In this document: positions 2,186 through 50,167 of the stretch, piece after piece
Numbering within the stretch: position 1 is the stretch's first letter
Layout: every line of letters starts with the position of its first letter
Assembly (NCBI GenBank): GCA_040390125.1
Contig: JAZJYZ010000001.1
Location: 570,396-634,395, forward strand
Source of the DNA: Patescibacteria group bacterium
Lineage (GTDB): Bacteria; Patescibacteriota; Minisyncoccia; Phycocordibacterales; Phycocordibacteraceae
Length of the DNA: 64,000 bases
Reading direction: 5' to 3'
Position numbers and translations under genes: made by a program
The notes under the pieces: generated by a model
What the model saw: only the letters and a program-made list of their open reading frames with translations
Databases searched by the model: none
Told to the model about the DNA's origin: nothing

Positions 2186-2230
2186 CTTAGATTTTGTTAG
2201 TGAACGTAGGTGAGCTTAAAAAATCTTAGA

Positions 2231-4440: not shown

Positions 4441-4534
4441 AGGTTAATGGCAGATATACGATGTCTGCCATAGGGCTGTGTATCTTGTAACTATGTTGGG
4501 TTTCGTAAACCCAACATCAAAACACTGGGTAGGT

Positions 4535-17418: not shown

Positions 17419-17611
17419 AGTTTAAATAGCTTACAGCTTTCAGGTGCCAGCTTTCAGCTTAAAATACAGCATCCAAGAGGTTTTCTCAATCCCCCACCCT
17501 CACCACTTCTTATTTTTCTATTCCAACTTGGTTATAGTATCAAGTTGGAAAGAAAAAGAAGTTAGTTTTTCTTATAATCCCTTCAGATCCGAGATGAAGA
17601 GAACTAGCTTC

Positions 17612-17962: not shown

Positions 17963-18116
17963 TTCTTTGATAAGTAGGATACCTACTATGTGTCCATAAT
18001 AAAACAAAAATATAAAATGTCAAAGAAATCTAACCTGGGGTATTACGCAAAGCAAATAACTTCTCCCTCCTCCCCAAAAGCTGGAAGCTGACAGCTGGAA
18101 CCTGAAAGCTTATCTT

Positions 18117-21203: not shown

Positions 21204-21233
21204 CTTTATATTCTAGCGTATGAAGCAACTATT

Positions 21234-21333
21234 AGCTGTCAGGTTTCAGCTTTTCAAACAGCTGTCAGGTTTCAGCTGTCAGCTTTCAGCTTTGAATGCA
21301 AAAGCTGGCACCTGGAAGCTGGAAGCTGGAAGC
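21234..21333. repeat. Heptamer-tiled palindromic intergenic element (8 left units, 5 right units)
   Basis: ...AGGTTTC AGCTTTTCAAAC AGCTGTC AGGTTTC AGCTGTC AGCTTTC AGCTTTG - aatgca - AAAGCTGG CACCTGG AAGCTGG AAGCTGG AAGCTC, between ftsL-like and ftsI. Confidence 0.5.
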
Positions 21334-21363
21334 TCTACTTTCTACCTTCTACCTTCTACCTTC
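21334..21363. repeat. Tandem heptamer microsatellite (CTACCTT x ~4)
   Basis: TTTCTACCTTCTACCTTCTACCTTCC, immediately at the 3' end of the ftsL-like ORF. Confidence 0.5.
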
Positions 21364-22688: not shown

Positions 22689-22700
22689 ATTCCTTTTCTT

Positions 22701-22736
22701 AAAGCTGGAAGCCGAAAGCTGTAACCTGAAAGCTTT
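22701..22736. repeat. Single-arm heptamer element (AAGCTGG AAGCCGA AAGCTGT AACCTGA AAGCTTTT)
   Basis: Right-arm-type units only, between mraZ and rsmH. It could pair long-range with the surplus left-arm units at 21234-21290. Confidence 0.4.
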
Positions 22737-23197
22737 TATATGACACCTATTTCTCCAAGCTTCGCAGCCATCGCATCTCCTTGCGACTCAATCTGCTCTT
22801 TGTAAGATGCCCAGCGTTTCTTATCCCACACTTCAATGCGGTCATTCACACCTGCAAGTACGACATCCGTTTTGAGAGTCGCAAAATCTTTCAGATAGTC
22901 AGGAATGAGAATGCGTCCTGCGGAATCAACATCAGCCTCCACGGCACCTGCAAGCATGAAGCGATTAAATCCTCGTGTATCAGATGAACCTATAGAAAGT
23001 TGACTAAACTTCTCAGCAAGTTTTTTCCACGACGTTACTGAGAAAACAAAAAGACAATGGTCGAGACCTCGAGTAACGATAACTGTCTTGCCAAGTTCTT
23101 TACGAAAGCGAGCCGGAAGTGAAAGGCGTTTTTTTGGATCAAGCGTGTGTTGGTATTCGCCAATGAGCATGAAAATAAAGGGGATTTTGTGGCTCAA
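22736..23197 (-). CDS. mraZ: Transcriptional regulator MraZ
   Basis: 153 aa with FIGEYQHTLDPKKRLSLPARFR; duplicated MraZ fold, first gene of the dcw cluster. Confidence 0.9.
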   Translation of the reverse strand: MSHKIPFIFMLIGEYQHTLDPKKRLSLPARFRKELGKTVIVTRGLDHCLFVFSVTSWKKLAEKFSQLSIGSSDTRGFNRFMLAGAVEADVDSAGRILIPDYLKDFATLKTDVVLAGVNDRIEVWDKKRWASYKEQIESQGDAMAAKLGEIGVI

Positions 23198-26289: not shown

Positions 26290-26835
26290 CTAAGAAATCT
26301 CGATGACGGTATATTCTTGTCTTCCGTTTGGAGTTGAGAATGTGAATGTTTCGCCCTTCTTCTTACCCATCATAGCTTCACCTAGTGGAGAGAGGTGTGA
26401 AATTTTATTCTCACGCATGTTTGCCTCTTCACTTCCCACAATGGTGTAGGAATGATCACTCTTATCACCCTTTTTGCGTATTTTAATTGTGGAGCCAAAG
26501 CCCGCTGTTCCCTTTTTCTTTTCTGAAATGATGACGGCTGATTTTACAAGGTGTTCAAGCCTGCGAATGCGTTCTTCCGTTGCGGCCTGGAGTTCTCTCG
26601 CTGCTTGATACTCTGCATTTTCAGATAAATCACCAAGAGAACGAGCGTACTCAAGCCCTTCTGCGATTTCCCTTCGAGCGACGGTAATTAAACGCTCAAG
26701 CTCTGCTTTTAATTCATCAAATTTTTCTTGAGAGAGAAGATTTTGTTCTTCTGTTTGGTCGCCTTTGGCACGTGCTTTCATACTGGTATGCGTCATTGTA
26801 TCCTCCATTGTCGAAACGTCAAATCGACACAACAA
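26290..26835 (-). CDS. greA: Transcription elongation factor GreA (with N-terminal extension)
   Basis: 181 aa with the GDLSENAEYQAARE coiled-coil motif plus a C-terminal FKBP-like domain. Confidence 0.85.
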   Translation of the reverse strand: MLCRFDVSTMEDTMTHTSMKARAKGDQTEEQNLLSQEKFDELKAELERLITVARREIAEGLEYARSLGDLSENAEYQAARELQAATEERIRRLEHLVKSAVIISEKKKGTAGFGSTIKIRKKGDKSDHSYTIVGSEEANMRENKISHLSPLGEAMMGKKKGETFTFSTPNGRQEYTVIEIS

Positions 26836-26855
26836 GCTTCCGGGTTTAATTAAGT

Positions 26856-26934
26856 AGCTTTCAGCTTCCAGCTGTCAGCTGCCAGCTTTTATGAAATTAA
26901 AGCTGAAAGCTATAACCTGACAGCTGACAGCTCA
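26856..26934. repeat. Heptamer-tiled palindromic intergenic element
   Basis: AGCTTTC AGCTTCC AGCTGTC AGCTGCC AGCTTTT - atgaaatta - AAGCTGA AAGCTAT AACCTGA CAGCTGA CAGCTCA, between the mrdA 3' end and the greA start. Confidence 0.5.
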
Positions 26935-26950
26935 GAGTTAGAAGCTTTGA

Positions 26951-36670: not shown

Positions 36671-36678
36671 ATGAGTAG

Positions 36679-36750
36679 GTGTCAGGTTACAGGTTCTAGC
36701 TTTCAGCTTGTAATTCTAACCTAGAACCTAGCACCTAGCACCTAAAACCT
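36679..36750. repeat. Heptamer-tiled palindromic element (AGGTTMY / ACCTAGM variant)
   Basis: AGGTTAC AGGTTCT AGCTTTC AGCTTG - taattcta - ACCTAGA ACCTAGC ACCTAGC ACCTAAA ACCTC, between frr and rseP. Confidence 0.45.
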
Positions 36751-38488: not shown

Positions 38489-38518
38489 ACTACAAAGAGC
38501 TGTCAGCTTTCAGGTTCT

Positions 38519-38540
38519 GTGCTACACCCGGGTGTAGCAC
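38519..38540. repeat. Perfect 22-bp palindrome GTGCTACACCCGGGTGTAGCAC (copy 1), nested inside a heptamer element (arms 38498-38518 / 38569-38598)
   Basis: An identical 22-mer recurs at 42404-42425. Confidence 0.6.
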
Positions 38541-38767
38541 ATTTGGAGAAGTTTGCAGTTTGGTAACTAGAAGCTGAAAGCTGGCAGCTGAAAGCTTGAA
38601 TTCCTAGAGCTTGCCTAAAAACCCGCGGTACCCAAGCCGAAACCTTTCATTTTCGTCATGAGACATGAGTCGGAGCCCGCAATGTACGGAGAGTACATTG
38701 CGGGCGAGACGAAATGTCGAGTAGAAAATGAAAGATTTCTAGGCAGGGGGAGGTTTTTAGGCAAGCT

Positions 38768-42322: not shown

Positions 42323-42403
42323 AGATAGCAGGCATCAATGACCGCCAACCCCAACACCCGCAAGGGTGTTTTTGATTTGATATATCAAACCACTCTCATT
42401 ATT

Positions 42404-42425
42404 GTGCTACACCCGGGTGTAGCAC
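42404..42425. repeat. Perfect 22-bp palindrome GTGCTACACCCGGGTGTAGCAC (copy 2)
   Basis: Identical to 38519-38540, between the two tail-anchored paralogs. Confidence 0.6.
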
Positions 42426-42492
42426 AATTTACTTTTCCCGTTATAGAAATTGACAAAAGAATCGTACGGAGTACAACATCAAAAGAAAGATT

Positions 42493-44311: not shown

Positions 44312-44383
44312 AGAAGGTTCTAGAGTTTAGATGCTAGCTTTTCCTACCAAAAGCTGGAAGCTGACAGCTGAAACCTGTAAGCT
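44312..44383. repeat. Heptamer-tiled palindromic element in the murA/priA divergent region
   Basis: ...TAGAGTTTAG ATGCTAGC TTTTCC - taccaa - AAGCTGG AAGCTGA CAGCTGA AACCTGT AAGCT. Confidence 0.45.
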
Positions 44384-44389
44384 AATATC

Positions 44390-46324
44390 ATGTTCATCGT
44401 CCGAGTCATACCTATCGCACGTGGGATTTTTACGAATCATTTGACATTCTTCTCTCGTGAAAACATACCGGAAGGAATGGTAGTCACCACCACTGTTCGT
44501 GGCCGTACAATTCCAGCACTCGTGATTGAATCTAAAGATGTCCGAGAAGAAAAACTTGATCTTCGAAGTGCTGGTTTCGCATTAAAGAAAATTTCCGCAA
44601 AAGCAAAACCAAAACGCATCCTCACCAGTGCGTTCATTAATGCCACAAAAGATGCGGCACTCTGGCACGGGGTGCATGAGAGCGTCATGTTTGCTGCACT
44701 CACATCGACTACACTTTTTAATGCTTCTGCAAAATTAGAATCCGCAGAAGATTTTCCTGAAAAAGAGACTGGGGCACACGAACCTGGTGTGCGGGCAGAC
44801 CTTCTGGTACTCCAAGCAGAAAAAGAAGAACGTGTGCGTACCTACCGGAATTTAGCGCGTGAATCATTTGCCAGGGGTGAATCGGTCATGATTATCGTAC
44901 CAACAGTAATCGAAGCCGAGCAGATGGAGCAAAATCTGAAACGTGGCATAGAAGAACACGTACTCCTCTTTACCAGCGAAATCACAAAGAAAAAATTGAT
45001 TGAAAACTGGAATAGCTCCGTAACGAACAAAAAACCAGTCTTGATTATTGGTACTGCATTTGCACTTTCCATACCTCGAGGAGACATAGGCACCATAGTT
45101 GTGGAGCGTGAAAGTGCTAGAGGATACCGAGGATTCTCTCGTCCACATGTGGATGTTCGTAGATGCGCCGAATCTCTCTGCAGAAGAATGGGTATACGGT
45201 TCATTCTTGCGGATTTTCCACTTCGCATCGAAACAAGGTACCGAGTAGACGCACATGAAATGGACGAACTTGCCCGCTCCCAAGCAAGGCCAAGCACCCG
45301 TGCAAACGTACAGATAGTGGACACCAGAAAAAAAGAAATAACGCTTGAGCAAACGTCAAAAACAAAACCGAAACGCACCTTCGCCACGCTCACCGACGAA
45401 ACGAAAGAAAAAATAGGTCACGAAATACAGAGAGGTGGGCGAGCAATTGTATTTGCAGCGAGGCGTGGTATTGCTCCACTGACCGTCTGCAACGACTGCG
45501 GAACTCCAGTCACTGACCCGGATACCGGCGTTCCTATGATTCTTCACAAAACTGAAAACGGAAATGTATTCATGTCACACCGCAGTGGAGCGACACTGCC
45601 GTCAGAGACCCCGTGCAAGACATGCGGAGGATGGAATTTGGTAACGTTGGGTGTAGGAGTCGAACGTGTGGAAAGTGAGCTTGCAAAAACATTTCCCAAC
45701 TCTCCCCTCATCACATTCACAAAAGACAGCGCACCAACGCATAAAACAGCAAAAAAACTTGCAGAAGAATTCTTCTCTACGGAAGGCTCCATACTCGTGG
45801 GAACAGAGCGGATGTTGCCATACCTCAAAGAGTCAGTAGCGATCGCCGTGGTAGCTTCGGTTGACAGCATGCTCTCCATTACTGCCTGGAGGGCACACGA
45901 GCACACACTCTCCATACTCTTTTACCTCCAAGAACATGCGGAACTAGAATTTATTGTTGAAACAAGAAAACCCGAAAGCGAGGTGATGAAGGCGTTCATG
46001 TCCGGGAACCCTGCTGATTTTTACCGTGCCGATATTTCGGAGCGAGAACAATACGGCTATCCACCATTTACCACATTCCTTGGCCTCCTCTGGAAAGGAA
46101 CAAAAGCACAGGTTGAGAAAAAAAGCCTCTACATCACAGAACTTTTTTCAGATACCGACTTAGTGGGCCCTCTCTCTCCTGTTGCTATAGGCAAGAGCGA
46201 ATGGCAAGCGAGGGCGGTGATTCGAGTAGAGAGGAAGAAGTGGCCAGACACTCTTCTTGCGGAACGTCTCCGTGCCCTACCGCCAGATATAGAAGTGACG
46301 GTAGATCCGGATGAGATAGTTTAG
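44390..46324 (+). CDS. priA: Primosomal protein N' (PriA) homolog with degenerate Walker A/B
   Basis: 644 aa with PriA-like layout and a Cys4 zinc region (CNDCG...CKTCGG). The Walker A position reads LVLQAEKEERVRTY instead of GxxGSGKT, and the DEEH box position reads VVERES. Confidence 0.7.
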   Translation: MFIVRVIPIARGIFTNHLTFFSRENIPEGMVVTTTVRGRTIPALVIESKDVREEKLDLRSAGFALKKISAKAKPKRILTSAFINATKDAALWHGVHESVMFAALTSTTLFNASAKLESAEDFPEKETGAHEPGVRADLLVLQAEKEERVRTYRNLARESFARGESVMIIVPTVIEAEQMEQNLKRGIEEHVLLFTSEITKKKLIENWNSSVTNKKPVLIIGTAFALSIPRGDIGTIVVERESARGYRGFSRPHVDVRRCAESLCRRMGIRFILADFPLRIETRYRVDAHEMDELARSQARPSTRANVQIVDTRKKEITLEQTSKTKPKRTFATLTDETKEKIGHEIQRGGRAIVFAARRGIAPLTVCNDCGTPVTDPDTGVPMILHKTENGNVFMSHRSGATLPSETPCKTCGGWNLVTLGVGVERVESELAKTFPNSPLITFTKDSAPTHKTAKKLAEEFFSTEGSILVGTERMLPYLKESVAIAVVASVDSMLSITAWRAHEHTLSILFYLQEHAELEFIVETRKPESEVMKAFMSGNPADFYRADISEREQYGYPPFTTFLGLLWKGTKAQVEKKSLYITELFSDTDLVGPLSPVAIGKSEWQARAVIRVERKKWPDTLLAERLRALPPDIEVTVDPDEIV

Positions 46325-46382
46325 AAAAATAAGAAGCGTAAGCGACTATATTTTTGTTAACCCCGTTAAATCCTTTCAAATC

Positions 46383-46658
46383 ATGAGTACGTTCTGCTAT
46401 GTATACGTCCTCCGATCAAAGAAAGATGGCAAATTCTATACGGGATATACCCAAGATTTGAAAGGACGATTTGAGGCGCACCAAAAAGGACGAGTAGGTT
46501 CAACACAAAATCGCAGACCGTTTACGCTTATTTACTCCGAGGCGTGCCTGGATCGTCGGGATGCAATGAAAAGGGAGCGCTATTTGAAAACTCACCACGG
46601 CAAGTTATTCTTACATAGTCGCCTCAAATCGTATTTAACAGGGTGTAAGATTCAGTAA
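46383..46658 (+). CDS. GIY-YIG nuclease family protein (URI domain, 91 aa)
   Basis: YVYVLRSKKDGKFYTGYTQDLKGRFEAH fits the GIY...YxG...R...E pattern. The gene lies between inverted-repeat ends AACCCCGTTAAAT (46359) and ATTTAACAGGGTG (46634). Confidence 0.8.
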   Translation: MSTFCYVYVLRSKKDGKFYTGYTQDLKGRFEAHQKGRVGSTQNRRPFTLIYSEACLDRRDAMKRERYLKTHHGKLFLHSRLKSYLTGCKIQ

Positions 46659-46689
46659 AACGTATGAGCGAATATGAATAAGCTGAACG

Positions 46690-46757
46690 TAACCCCGTTA
46701 AATCCCGCCAAGCGGGACGCTCGAATGCGAGCGTATTTAACAGGGTGTAAGATTTCC
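46690..46757. mobile_element. ORF-less derivative of the GIY-YIG element (MITE-like)
   Basis: TAACCCCGTTAAATCC + 27-nt two-hairpin filler + GTATTTAACAGGGTGTAAGATT. It carries the same 5' leader and the same ORF 3' end as the full copy, immediately downstream of it. Confidence 0.55.
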
Positions 46758-46787
46758 TAACTCGCTTCGCTCGCAACAAAATCTAAC

Positions 46788-47333
46788 ATGATTGACCCAA
46801 TTGTTCTCAAAGGCGCAAAAATCCTCAAACAAAAAATGAAGGAAGTACCAAAAAGCCTTTTTGGTACGGCAGAGCTTAGGGACATCATTGCTCGTATGTC
46901 TCTCTCCTTAAGAGACACCAAACATGGTGTTGCCATAGCCGCAAATCAAATAGGTATTCCCTACCGCATTTTCGTCGTACGTGGATTCGTACTCGAAAAC
47001 AAAGAGAGGAATGACCCAGCAACATTGACGGAGGACGATGAAGACAGAGCATTCATTAATCCTAAAATCGTCAAAATTTCCAGGAAAAAAGAACTCATGG
47101 ATGAAGCGTGTCTTTCTGTACCAGAGTTTCACGGCACCATAAAGCGAGCACTTCAAGCAACAGTTCGTGCATACGACATTGAAGGGATCCGCTTTGAGCG
47201 AGGCGGTAGCGGACTTTTAGCACAAATCTTTCAGCATGAAACCGACCACCTCGAAGGAATTCTCTATGTAGACAAAGCAGTAGAAGTACTTAAAGTGAAA
47301 GAAGAGAGCGAGATACAAAAAGAAGAAAAATAA
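46788..47333 (+). CDS. def: Peptide deformylase
   Basis: 181 aa with GVAIAANQIG, EACLSVP and QHETDHLEG motifs. Confidence 0.9.
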   Translation: MIDPIVLKGAKILKQKMKEVPKSLFGTAELRDIIARMSLSLRDTKHGVAIAANQIGIPYRIFVVRGFVLENKERNDPATLTEDDEDRAFINPKIVKISRKKELMDEACLSVPEFHGTIKRALQATVRAYDIEGIRFERGGSGLLAQIFQHETDHLEGILYVDKAVEVLKVKEESEIQKEEK

Positions 47334-48844: not shown

Positions 48845-50167
48845 TTATAAATATTCTCTTGTTAGGTTGCGAATGCCATTGTTTGTAACGAGTACATCGT
48901 CTTCAATGCGAACGCCTCCGTAGGGAGCAATGCGGTCGATGAGTTCCCAGTTGAAGTGTGTGGATGTAGTACCGCTTCGGTGGGGGTGGAGGAGCATTTC
49001 TATAAAATATACTCCTGGCTCTACCGTGAACACCTGCCCTTCTTTTATTACATTTGTGTTTCTAAGCTCTGGAGTTTTCTTACTTCCTACGTCGTGAACC
49101 TGAAGTCCGAGCATGTGTCCTACACCGTGCGGAAAAAATACTTTGGTAAGCCCCAGCTTCACAGCTTCTTTTCCATCAACCGTGAGAATGCCGAGTGAAA
49201 AAAGTAAGTTTCCAATTTTGAGGTGTGCTTCTTTCTGTAGCTCTTCAAAGGAGAGTCCTGGCTTCACTAACGCACATAGTTCTTGCTGTAATTCTTCAAC
49301 CCCCTGAAGAAGTGCGGTGAAAAGTGAATCGACGTGCGGTGCTACAAATGTACGTGTGACATCCGACGCATACCCGAGACAGCTCGCTCCTGCGTCAAGA
49401 AGGAGTGACGCACCATTTCGCACCTCTCTCCGCTTGCCTTGATAATGCAGAGTCGCACCTTTTTCATTCAACGCCACAATAGTTTCATATGGTAATTCCC
49501 TTTCCACACAAGCGACTGCCTTCATATATGCTTGATGAATTTCAAGCTCCGATGCACCAGCAAGAAATACTTCACGAGCACCCTTGTGTCCCACCGACGC
49601 AATCCTATTTGCCTCGCTAATACAGGCAATCTCATACGGGGTCTTATGACTCCTCTCGATATCCAAGCGAGCGAGGAGCTCTTTCGGGTTGACACAATCC
49701 TTCCCAATCCCTTGTTTTTTTATCTCTTCCGAATTATCTCCAACATACGCAATTCTTCCAATGTTGGGTTTCGTAAACCCAACATTGAGTTCTTTCCAGG
49801 CGGAGTCGGCAGTGGATACTTCAATAAGTTCAAACTCGGAAAGCCAAAAAGATTTACCCTGAGCACTGTCGAACGGGTCGGCAAGAGAGGCTTGCTCATG
49901 CCAATAATCATCAAGCTTCACGCAAATGAGGGTAGGCTTTACATCCGGTCGTATTAAAAGAAAATTACCCGGTTCGTTTAAGGGAGCCCAGTGAGCGAAA
50001 TGCGGGTACGTACGAAACGGAGCATCCTGGTCATCAGCGAAGTAGCGAAGAGGGGTGCCTGAATAGATAATGAGTGCATCAAACCCCGTCGCTAAAAGTG
50101 CATCTTCTGTTTGTCGTTGTCGCTCACTAATGTGAGCAGAATAGAGAGAAAGAATCTCGTCTTTCAT
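48845..50167 (-). CDS. Xaa-Pro aminopeptidase/dipeptidase (M24B family)
   Basis: 440 aa; HGVGHMLGLQVHDVG and a pita-bread fold metal-ligand pattern, with an N-terminal creatinase-like domain. Confidence 0.85.
   Translation of the reverse strand: MKDEILSLYSAHISERQRQTEDALLATGFDALIIYSGTPLRYFADDQDAPFRTYPHFAHWAPLNEPGNFLLIRPDVKPTLICVKLDDYWHEQASLADPFDSAQGKSFWLSEFELIEVSTADSAWKELNVGFTKPNIGRIAYVGDNSEEIKKQGIGKDCVNPKELLARLDIERSHKTPYEIACISEANRIASVGHKGAREVFLAGASELEIHQAYMKAVACVERELPYETIVALNEKGATLHYQGKRREVRNGASLLLDAGASCLGYASDVTRTFVAPHVDSLFTALLQGVEELQQELCALVKPGLSFEELQKEAHLKIGNLLFSLGILTVDGKEAVKLGLTKVFFPHGVGHMLGLQVHDVGSKKTPELRNTNVIKEGQVFTVEPGVYFIEMLLHPHRSGTTSTHFNWELIDRIAPYGGVRIEDDVLVTNNGIRNLTREYL

Follow-up and report, generated by a model that had tools for sequence, protein, structure and literature searches.

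In a 64,000-nt stretch of a Patescibacteria group bacterium genome (contig JAZJYZ010000001.1, positions 570,396 to 634,395; hereafter the window), a small GIY-YIG nuclease gene lies between priA and def, inside an element whose ends and interior pair into a three-way junction, and is followed by a copy of the element that lacks the open reading frame (ORF). Relatives of both forms share this architecture: the helices covary, the copies form a deletion series, sites filled in one genome are empty in another, and the protein belongs to the Slx1-like fold class. [quoted passage not shown]

The element and its ORF-less copies in the window

The 91-aa ORF at 46383–46658 (+) encodes a GIY-YIG protein (Pfam PF01541, E = 1.8e-17, 63.8 bits against a cut-off of 22.6) that is absent from the recorded called genes. 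The inverted-repeat ends attributed to it in the original prediction are present as described: the arms ACCCCGTTAAAT (46360–46371) and ATTTAACAGGGT (46633–46644), 12 nt long with one mismatch, form helix P1, and the 3' arm falls within the ORF, in codons Y84-L-T-G87. Two further helices had been overlooked. P2 joins CCTTTCAAATC in the 5' untranslated region (UTR; 46372–46382) to codons 25–28 (46455–46465), while P3 joins ACGATTTGAGGCG, the GRFEA codons (46466–46478), to CGCCTCAAATCGT, the RLKSY codons (46620–46632), with 13/13 positions complementary. Since the three helices directly abut, the ORF-bearing core element (46357–46647, +) is a three-way junction.

The adjacent ORF-less copy (46690–46754, +) shares both ends with the ORF-bearing one, as had been claimed: the 16-nt 5' end TAACCCCGTTAAATCC is found exactly at 46358 and 46690, and the 23-nt 3' end CGTATTTAACAGGGTGTAAGATT exactly at 46630 and 46732. 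Its P1 arms (46692–46703 and 46735–46746) enclose a 31-nt filler of two hairpins, CCCGC-CAA-GCGGG (46704–46716) and ACGCTCG-AATG-CGAGCGT (46717–46734), with a minimum free energy of -29.3 kcal/mol and z = -4.8. The two copies have a common architecture, the ORF-less form consisting of P1 and two hairpins. The third, more diverged copy reported between glmS and rmuC was recovered at 2230–2284 as ACCCTGTTAAA...TTTAACAGGGT, with an 11-bp P1 and likewise two hairpins, both with triloops (z about -4); it was assigned to the minus strand on the basis of the glmS start codon and of the flanking hairpin (2186–2229, minus strand), which ends at that codon. The 12-mer TTTAACAGGGTG, with at most one mismatch, occurs 4 times in the window against 0.31 expected, a count reached in 0/100 shuffles, and a relaxed search of the window for P1 arms gave no additional copies.

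Two outer hairpins complete the composite unit. H-up, an inverted repeat (GTTTAGAAAAATA / TATTTTTGTTAAC; 46319–46361, +), overlaps the priA stop codon at the left end, and H-down (GTAAGATTT...AAATCTAAC; 46747–46787, +) ends at the def start codon on the right; a spacer with weak likeness to H-up (46654–46689, +) separates the ORF copy from the miniature. When paralogous insertions at the thyA-dcd site (L001, L002, L124; L numbers denote retrieved loci) were aligned, homology began exactly at GTTTAG, the last codon and stop of the upstream gene, and ceased at TCTAAC, the last letters in front of the downstream ATG; the genes on the flanks are unrelated. The unit in this lineage therefore includes both outer hairpins. 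The original prediction, which placed the limits at 46359–46757, had recognized the P1 ends and the filler and missed the outer hairpins as well as P2 and P3; in this lineage the mobile unit exceeds those limits and extends from GTTTAG to TCTAAC.

Conservation of the fold in ORF-bearing relatives

A protein search yielded 359 clusters at 90% identity, and those with names were Patescibacteria or Paceibacterota. From a metagenome scan for two peptides, one of them RLKSYLTG, at least 577 relatives were obtained; 80 loci were retained, and 79 distinct, complete elements were analysed. In all 79 the 5' arm is complementary to the element's own 3' arm, so the ends are not missing from other GIY-YIG copies, and in distant subfamilies they persist as covarying arms.

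On the 79-locus alignment, 89.5% of cells in the three-helix structure are paired and 23/39 pairs change on both sides. None of 500 shuffles reached any of five measures, and pairing fell to 27–50% in slid registers. Covariation was seen in 8/15 pairs of P1 and in 9/11 pairs of P2, which is 96% paired. The pair changes in P2 alter the encoded residues (DLKG, NLQG, NLKL), which argues that the nucleic-acid structure is what selection acts on. The initial description as a transposon with terminal inverted repeats was right about the ends and incomplete otherwise, the conserved feature being the three-way-junction fold.

The peptide RLKSYLTG, whose codons form the 3' arms of P3 and P1, is invariant or nearly so in 20 homologues. 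Members typically have their stop codon, TAA or TGA, within an extension of P1, TTY-ACCC...GGGT-RAA. More distant relatives keep the design in another sequence: L071 (49% identity) has a P1 of TCCCGTTAGGGAT/ATCTCTAACGGGA and a perfect 15-bp P3, and L167 (53% identity) has a P1 of GCCCTGTGTAAT/ATTACACGGGGC, with the 3' arm located after the stop codon. No such arms were present at a YhbQ-like GIY-YIG gene (35% identity).

The GIY-YIG protein

Residues Y8, Y19, G21, R29 and E65 are invariant in 20 homologues. The protein is 84–91 aa long and has no DNA-binding domain. Sequence profile matches in the PDB were confined to the UPF0213 proteins 1zg2 (8e-10) and 1ywl. A Foldseek search with the AlphaFold2 model (mean predicted local distance difference test score 87.6) placed 1zg2 first, followed by Slx1 structures obtained with branched DNA (6seh, 7cq2 and 4xlg), with UvrC and I-TevI (1yd6, 1ln0) ranked below them. 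Searching 1.84 billion representatives with a profile gave 3,095 clusters (50% identity) at E up to 1e-10, and most matches terminate at the last residue of the protein. Sequence and model together indicate that the protein is a minimal nuclease of the Slx1/UPF0213 type, an activity that is predicted. Slx1 is a nuclease of branched DNA (PMC1564403; titles of PDB entries); stand-alone bacterial proteins of this kind fall into the Slx1 cluster and represent the minimal GIY-YIG form (Dunin-Horkawicz et al., PMC1564403), and a C-terminal catalytic Asn is typical of the UvrC+ lineage (PMC1564403).

ORF-less miniatures in other genomes

A search for further paired ends, of the kind suggested along with the original prediction, revealed a large family of ORF-less copies. 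With one genome per species and the pattern ACCCYGTTAAA-N20-50-TTTAACAGGGT, miniatures of 45–70 nt with a P1 of 12–15 bp were found at at least 120 genomic loci in about ten phyla. The labels among the loci listed comprise about 65 Patescibacteria, 12 Omnitrophota, 7 WOR-3 or Stahlbacteria, 10 Desulfobacterota-type, 7 Bacteroidota, 2 Cloacimonadota, 2 Calditrichaceae, 3 metagenome-assembled genomes (MAGs) labelled Gammaproteobacteria, 1 Spirochaetales, 1 Neobacillus and 10 unclassified; some miniatures lie on contigs of 4–6 Mb.

The interiors are unrelated in sequence yet fold, with two hairpins in 93/123 and one in 28/123, and 66% of their bases are paired compared with 41% in shuffles. The loops are mostly the triloops AAA, TTT, GAA and TTC, many of the GCGAAGC type, and the hairpins vary too much in length for a common alignment. 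Carriage by phages or plasmids was considered and rejected: only 1 viral contig contained the miniature pattern, and annotated phages and plasmids held no close relative of the protein, all matches being below 45% identity.

A WOR-3/Stahlbacteria subfamily (L040, L070, L078 with three copies, L088, L026, L055, L091) has the same P1 arms around an unstructured interior of about 40 nt. In L040, L070, L078, L088 and L026 the miniatures are flanked by direct repeats of ATCTGCGT or its reverse complement, which could represent a specific target that was duplicated, or else belong to a larger repeat.

Insertion polymorphism and internal deletion

Several sites document gain or loss of the element. 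At priA-def, the window and the sister contig L203 (protein 91% identical) are filled, and L205 and L207 (def 81% and 78% identical) are empty, with 64–74 nt of unrelated sequence after a priA ending in GTCTAA or GTCTAG. Relative to L203, the window contains an extra 102-nt block, formed by the spacer and the miniature and bounded by the 23-nt repeat; a homologous succession of ORF, spacer and miniature is found in L125. At rmuC-glmS, the miniature and H-down of the window are replaced by 48 unrelated nt in L209–L212 (glmS 94% identical), and L213 (82% identical) holds a decayed copy. A second ORF element (P0007, protein 76% identical), at the thyA-dcd site, apparently shares the genome with the window copy. 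In another element-free relative (L204, 1520–1565) priA ends in ATAGTTTAGAATAAGAAAATAA, which resembles the left end of the element, GTTTAGAAAAATAAGAAG; either a trace left by an element since lost or a favoured target could explain this.

Miniatures also multiply within genomes. One MAG contains near-identical copies in four different contexts (L018, L022, L035, L122), and tandem copies occur in L154, L170, L035 and L008. In two nested cases (L106, 4560–4700; L020, 5447–5530) a complete miniature replaces the second hairpin of the outer one, directly before the outer 3' arm, indicating that the inner element is able to stand in structurally for a hairpin.

[quoted passage not shown] The deleted element (1–150) is 100% identical to the first 127 nt of its neighbour, with the P3 loop reduced to a hairpin. 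In the array (1–1084; repeat CTTAGAAGTCCTATAAGATTTCTACTTTTGTAGAT, spacing 65–67 nt), three repeats are split by an identical 57-nt miniature, always at the same point between CCTAT and AAGATTTC and with no target duplication. The earlier view of the ORF-less copies as MITE-like internal deletions gains from this intermediate and from the insertion polymorphisms; the target duplication of MITEs is missing in this one clean case, and the flanks of other subfamilies are ambiguous in this respect. The element may inactivate or remodel CRISPR arrays. The array starts right after the ORF element and miniature, an invaded repeat has copies of one spacer on both its sides, and the 3' end of the repeat resembles Cas12a repeats.

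Insertions within conserved genes

A gene of the PF05635 family (23S rRNA intervening sequence/four-helix bundle) is split at one and the same motif, between ...S[IV]xxN[I] and (A)EG..., in at least ten diverged loci (L134, L137, L159, L175, L183, L184, L186, L187, L191, L193; about 40 nt either side of the element). The N-terminal halves match positions 1–45 of the profile and the C-terminal halves positions 49–99. With the downstream frame read correctly, both halves are open reading frames in L186, L187, L159, L134 and, by eye, L137. No matching empty allele of this site was present among the retrieved loci. Reading of the sequences showed that the host frames on either side differ in register relative to P1 between L186 and L137/L187, so splicing at a fixed position is not possible, and an intron or intein interpretation of the in-gene insertions was rejected.

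Other genes are affected as well. In L164 (~1440–1800) the element interrupts a GxxExxY-type gene, and in L179 (~900–1300) a gene for an IS200/RAYT-like transposase, at YIDF|NPVRAG, where the host NPV codons resemble the 5' arm of the element. Epimerase-associated copies have a flanking duplication of about 85 nt: in L189 (1380–1840), a short N-terminal fragment of an rfbB-like epimerase gene, the element and the intact gene follow one another, the direct duplication being diverged. Further in-gene or gene-edge insertions were noted in L133, L152, L196 and L200.

Alternative explanations

The in-gene insertions bear most directly on a homing-endonuclease gene with relics, in which ORF copies would spread only by double-strand-break repair into cognate sites and the miniatures would be decayed or healed remnants with no mobility of their own. 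The repeated interruption of PF05635 genes at one motif position is what such a gene would leave, as are the hits on further conserved genes (GxxExxY-type, RAYT-like, the 5' end of the epimerase); GIY-YIG homing endonucleases are well known, and L170 holds a deletion intermediate in situ. We nevertheless regard this explanation as unlikely. At 84–91 aa and devoid of a DNA-binding domain, the protein is of the Slx1 type and not of the I-TevI type, identical miniatures occupy unrelated loci of one genome and CRISPR repeats where there is no ORF copy, and miniatures nest within one another. Perfect hairpins of arbitrary sequence are, moreover, not expected of remnants.

A second alternative, which we judge somewhat less probable still, is that the junction acts in the transcript and that the miniatures are the same RNA module without the ORF; such an RNA might autoregulate translation of the GIY-YIG protein, stabilize or process the mRNA, or keep the stop and start codons of an operon close. 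The strong covariation would fit, as would the position of the P2 5' arm just upstream of the start codon, the outer hairpins that span from stop codon to start codon, an ORF co-oriented with the flanking genes at about 80% of loci, and the short distance, often 2–12 nt, from the element to the next ATG. The pairing statistics point elsewhere. In a functional RNA G.U is normally much better tolerated than A.C, and that on a single strand, but on the coding strand of the 79 ORF elements G.T (45), A.C (52) and other mismatches (51) are equally frequent, with no preference of the sense strand for G.U over A.C. The miniature hairpins are equally good on both strands, the ratio of Watson-Crick to G.T pairs being 1321:50 on one and 1315:46 on the other, and they end in triloops instead of tetraloops, as stable DNA hairpins typically do, many belonging to the GCGAAGC type. 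With a palindromic P1, a miniature can lie in either orientation without consequence, and an RNA role leaves insertion polymorphism, nesting and insertion into CRISPR repeats unexplained. No Rfam family was matched: at gathering thresholds only a tRNA elsewhere in the window reached threshold, and a permissive search (E up to 10) returned only noise at the locus and nothing relevant on L170. Equal G.T and A.C on the coding strand, strand-symmetric pairing in the miniatures and the triloops together favour folding of DNA over RNA, so that the folding molecule is more plausibly DNA, whether in the form of a cruciform or of single strands with one or the other polarity.

If the DNA itself folds, it could also be a substrate for host enzymes, with the folded site moved by a tyrosine recombinase (Xer- or integron-like) and the GIY-YIG gene as a passenger. 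Conserved ends around a centre that is variable in sequence but structured recall the logic of attC, the insertion in L170 shows no target duplication, and TGTTAAAT, the 8 outermost nt of P1, coincides with the outer part of the XerD-binding arm of E. coli dif, TTATGTTAAAT, a match that may be due to chance or to a Xer link. The second arm and the central region of a dif-like site are, however, not present, and P1 keeps one sequence in phyla that have different dif sites. Every subfamily has the GIY-YIG ORF tightly interwoven with the structure, even those in which P1 is different, and no recombinase is linked in any examined locus. We therefore consider this explanation very improbable. Finally, unrelated terminator hairpins of chance similarity, suggested by the intergenic position and the GC-rich hairpins, can be dismissed as the original prediction expected, since there is no T-run, 0 terminator-like sites were found in 46200–46900, the 16-nt and 23-nt ends are exact, 4 matches in the window stand against 0.31 expected, and at least 120 further copies have the same arms.

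Proposed mechanism

We return to the selfish element acting on folded DNA. For the folding molecule, the action of the nuclease on the fold and the whole chemistry of cutting and joining, we infer the following scheme. The autonomous form measures about 290 nt, or about 430 nt with both outer hairpins in this Paceibacteria-type lineage. Its single gene encodes a minimal GIY-YIG nuclease of the Slx1-like type, and the sequence that holds this gene is at the same time able to form the three-way junction on either DNA strand. P1 unites the two ends, its 3' arm supplied by the last four codons (YLTG), usually plus the stop codon; P2 is formed by the 5' UTR and codons ~25–28, and P3 by codons ~28–32 and ~80–84. 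The element could extrude as a cruciform or fold in single-stranded DNA at replication forks, whereupon its nuclease would recognize the branched structure together with the conserved P1 and cut at the base. Such cutting would release or copy the element, and host repair or ligation would complete insertion.

Loss of the P2 and P3 loops by internal deletion yields the non-autonomous derivatives of 45–70 nt, composed of P1 and two short hairpins, which multiply within genomes and across phyla and would be served in trans by the nuclease. Specificity would be supplied by the conserved sequence of P1; P2 and P3 need only be helices, and their sequence is therefore free in miniatures.

A number of points weigh against this scheme. 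GIY-YIG enzymes hydrolyse DNA and are incapable of strand transfer, which leaves the joining step unexplained; the part that the protein would play in mobility, and the ends as its putative cleavage site, are deduced from sequence. A related GIY-YIG gene lies near only 2/120 listed miniatures (8-kb loci). The flanks differ between subfamilies (ATCTGCGT repeats in one, the ~85-nt duplication in another), so no uniform mechanism of insertion is evident. Nor could a general target-site rule be derived: upstream flanks tend to TTY and some targets resemble the element's own arms, both of them anecdotal. The invariance of P1 among miniatures is partly built in, as the scan demanded exact arms, and the RLKSYLTG peptide partly builds in the presence of the 3' arm among ORF copies, although the results for the 5' arm, P2 and P3 are independent of that bias. 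Some taxonomic labels of MAGs may be wrong. The co-orientation of the ORF with its neighbours in about 80% of loci, and its frequent end a few bases before the next start codon (the ATG often 2–12 nt after the element), would also fit a role at the level of mRNA.

A small selfish element with non-autonomous derivatives is a known kind of entity, and there is a substantial chance that this one represents a new class of transposon. More specifically, and more tentatively, it may be a new class of prokaryotic transposable element, a Y-shaped DNA palindrome excised or copied by its own minimal Slx1-like GIY-YIG nuclease, and would then be the first bacterial DNA transposon driven by a GIY-YIG enzyme; its MITE-like offspring would have reached about ten phyla and be able to enter CRISPR repeats as well as conserved genes. 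In the full-text literature searched, neither the arms nor the fold nor any GIY-YIG element that has miniature derivatives was found described. If the interpretation is correct, it assigns a function to the many orphan genes for small GIY-YIG (UPF0213-like) proteins, a large group with more than 3,000 clusters at 50% identity, accounts for many short palindromic intergenic repeats in the streamlined genomes of Patescibacteria, and identifies an element that disrupts CRISPR repeats and splits conserved genes. To our knowledge, a structure-specific nuclease acting on folded DNA would be a mode of transposition outside the known insertion-sequence classifications. A 65-nt miniature and a protein of 85–91 aa would form an unusually small system, directly testable in vitro.

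Other repeats in the window

A second, unrelated intergenic repeat family consists of tandem heptamers, AGCTGNA or ACCTGNA, in arrays of about 35–45 nt at at least 11 sites. Arrays in both orientations lie at 264–344, 17424–17471, 18074–18113, 21220–21337, 22698–22751, 26835–26942, 36677–36720, 38494–38599 and 44347–44386. Heptamer arrays of other sequence flank miniatures elsewhere (GAACTTT in L024, CAATTTT in L035, TTCGTGN in L060), and a CTAAACC array replaces the element at the rmuC-glmS site of the relative L209. Comparable heptamers are the TAACTGA repeats of Beggiatoaceae (PMC4679880).

The window also contains two pairs of distant identical or near-identical perfect palindromes, ATGTTGGGTTTCGTAAACCCAACAT and TGTGCTACACCCGGGTGTAGCACA (4493–4517 with 49761–49785, and 38518–38544 with 42403–42429), which may be shared terminators or another small repeat.

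Comparison with known systems

With UPF0213 proteins (1zg2, 1ywl) and eukaryotic Slx1, the protein shares the fold, the catalytic residues and the minimal domain without an accessory domain (PMC1564403). It differs in the conserved C-terminal tail RLKSYLTG, whose codons form P3 and P1, and in the embedding of its gene in a mobile palindromic element; in the literature found, UPF0213 proteins are treated as repair proteins, with no mobile element described for them (PMC1564403).

Free-standing GIY-YIG homing endonuclease genes such as T4 Seg and I-TevI are likewise inserted between or within conserved genes and show presence/absence polymorphism. In contrast to the element, they encode long DNA-binding domains and have neither inverted-repeat ends nor multiplying ORF-less derivatives, and the protein here has a fold nearer to that of Slx1 than to that of I-TevI. 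Integron attC sites and the CTX phage's folded attP share the folded single strand proposed here, the conserved ends and the variable but structured interior. They are substrates of tyrosine recombinases encoded elsewhere, whereas none is linked here, and the polarity of the conserved heptamers differs.

Bacterial MITEs (Correia/NEMIS, RUP, MITEAba12) are similarly short, multi-copy and intergenic, with terminal inverted repeats and an origin by internal deletion. The classical ones derive from insertion sequences with a DDE transposase and have target-site duplications, whereas L170 shows none and the derivatives described here retain a selected secondary structure. No transposase of an insertion-sequence family was seen in the examined loci, the only gene of the element being that of the GIY-YIG nuclease.

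IS200/IS605 and the repetitive extragenic palindrome system REP/RAYT (REPtron) also consist of small, structure-recognized hairpin DNA in which palindromic derivatives outnumber the gene, and they insert without target duplication, which is also missing in the one clean case here (L170). They use an HUH Y1 transposase with covalent intermediates, unlike the element, which has only a hydrolytic GIY-YIG nuclease; no HUH Y1 transposase is present in it, and the RAYT-like gene of L179 is interrupted by the element. Their hairpins are subterminal, without terminal inverted repeats, whereas here the ends pair and close a three-way junction. Together, REP/RAYT, IS200/IS605 and MITEs are the systems most similar in working to the GIY-YIG element, and the defining features in which it departs from them are the type of transposase and target duplication.

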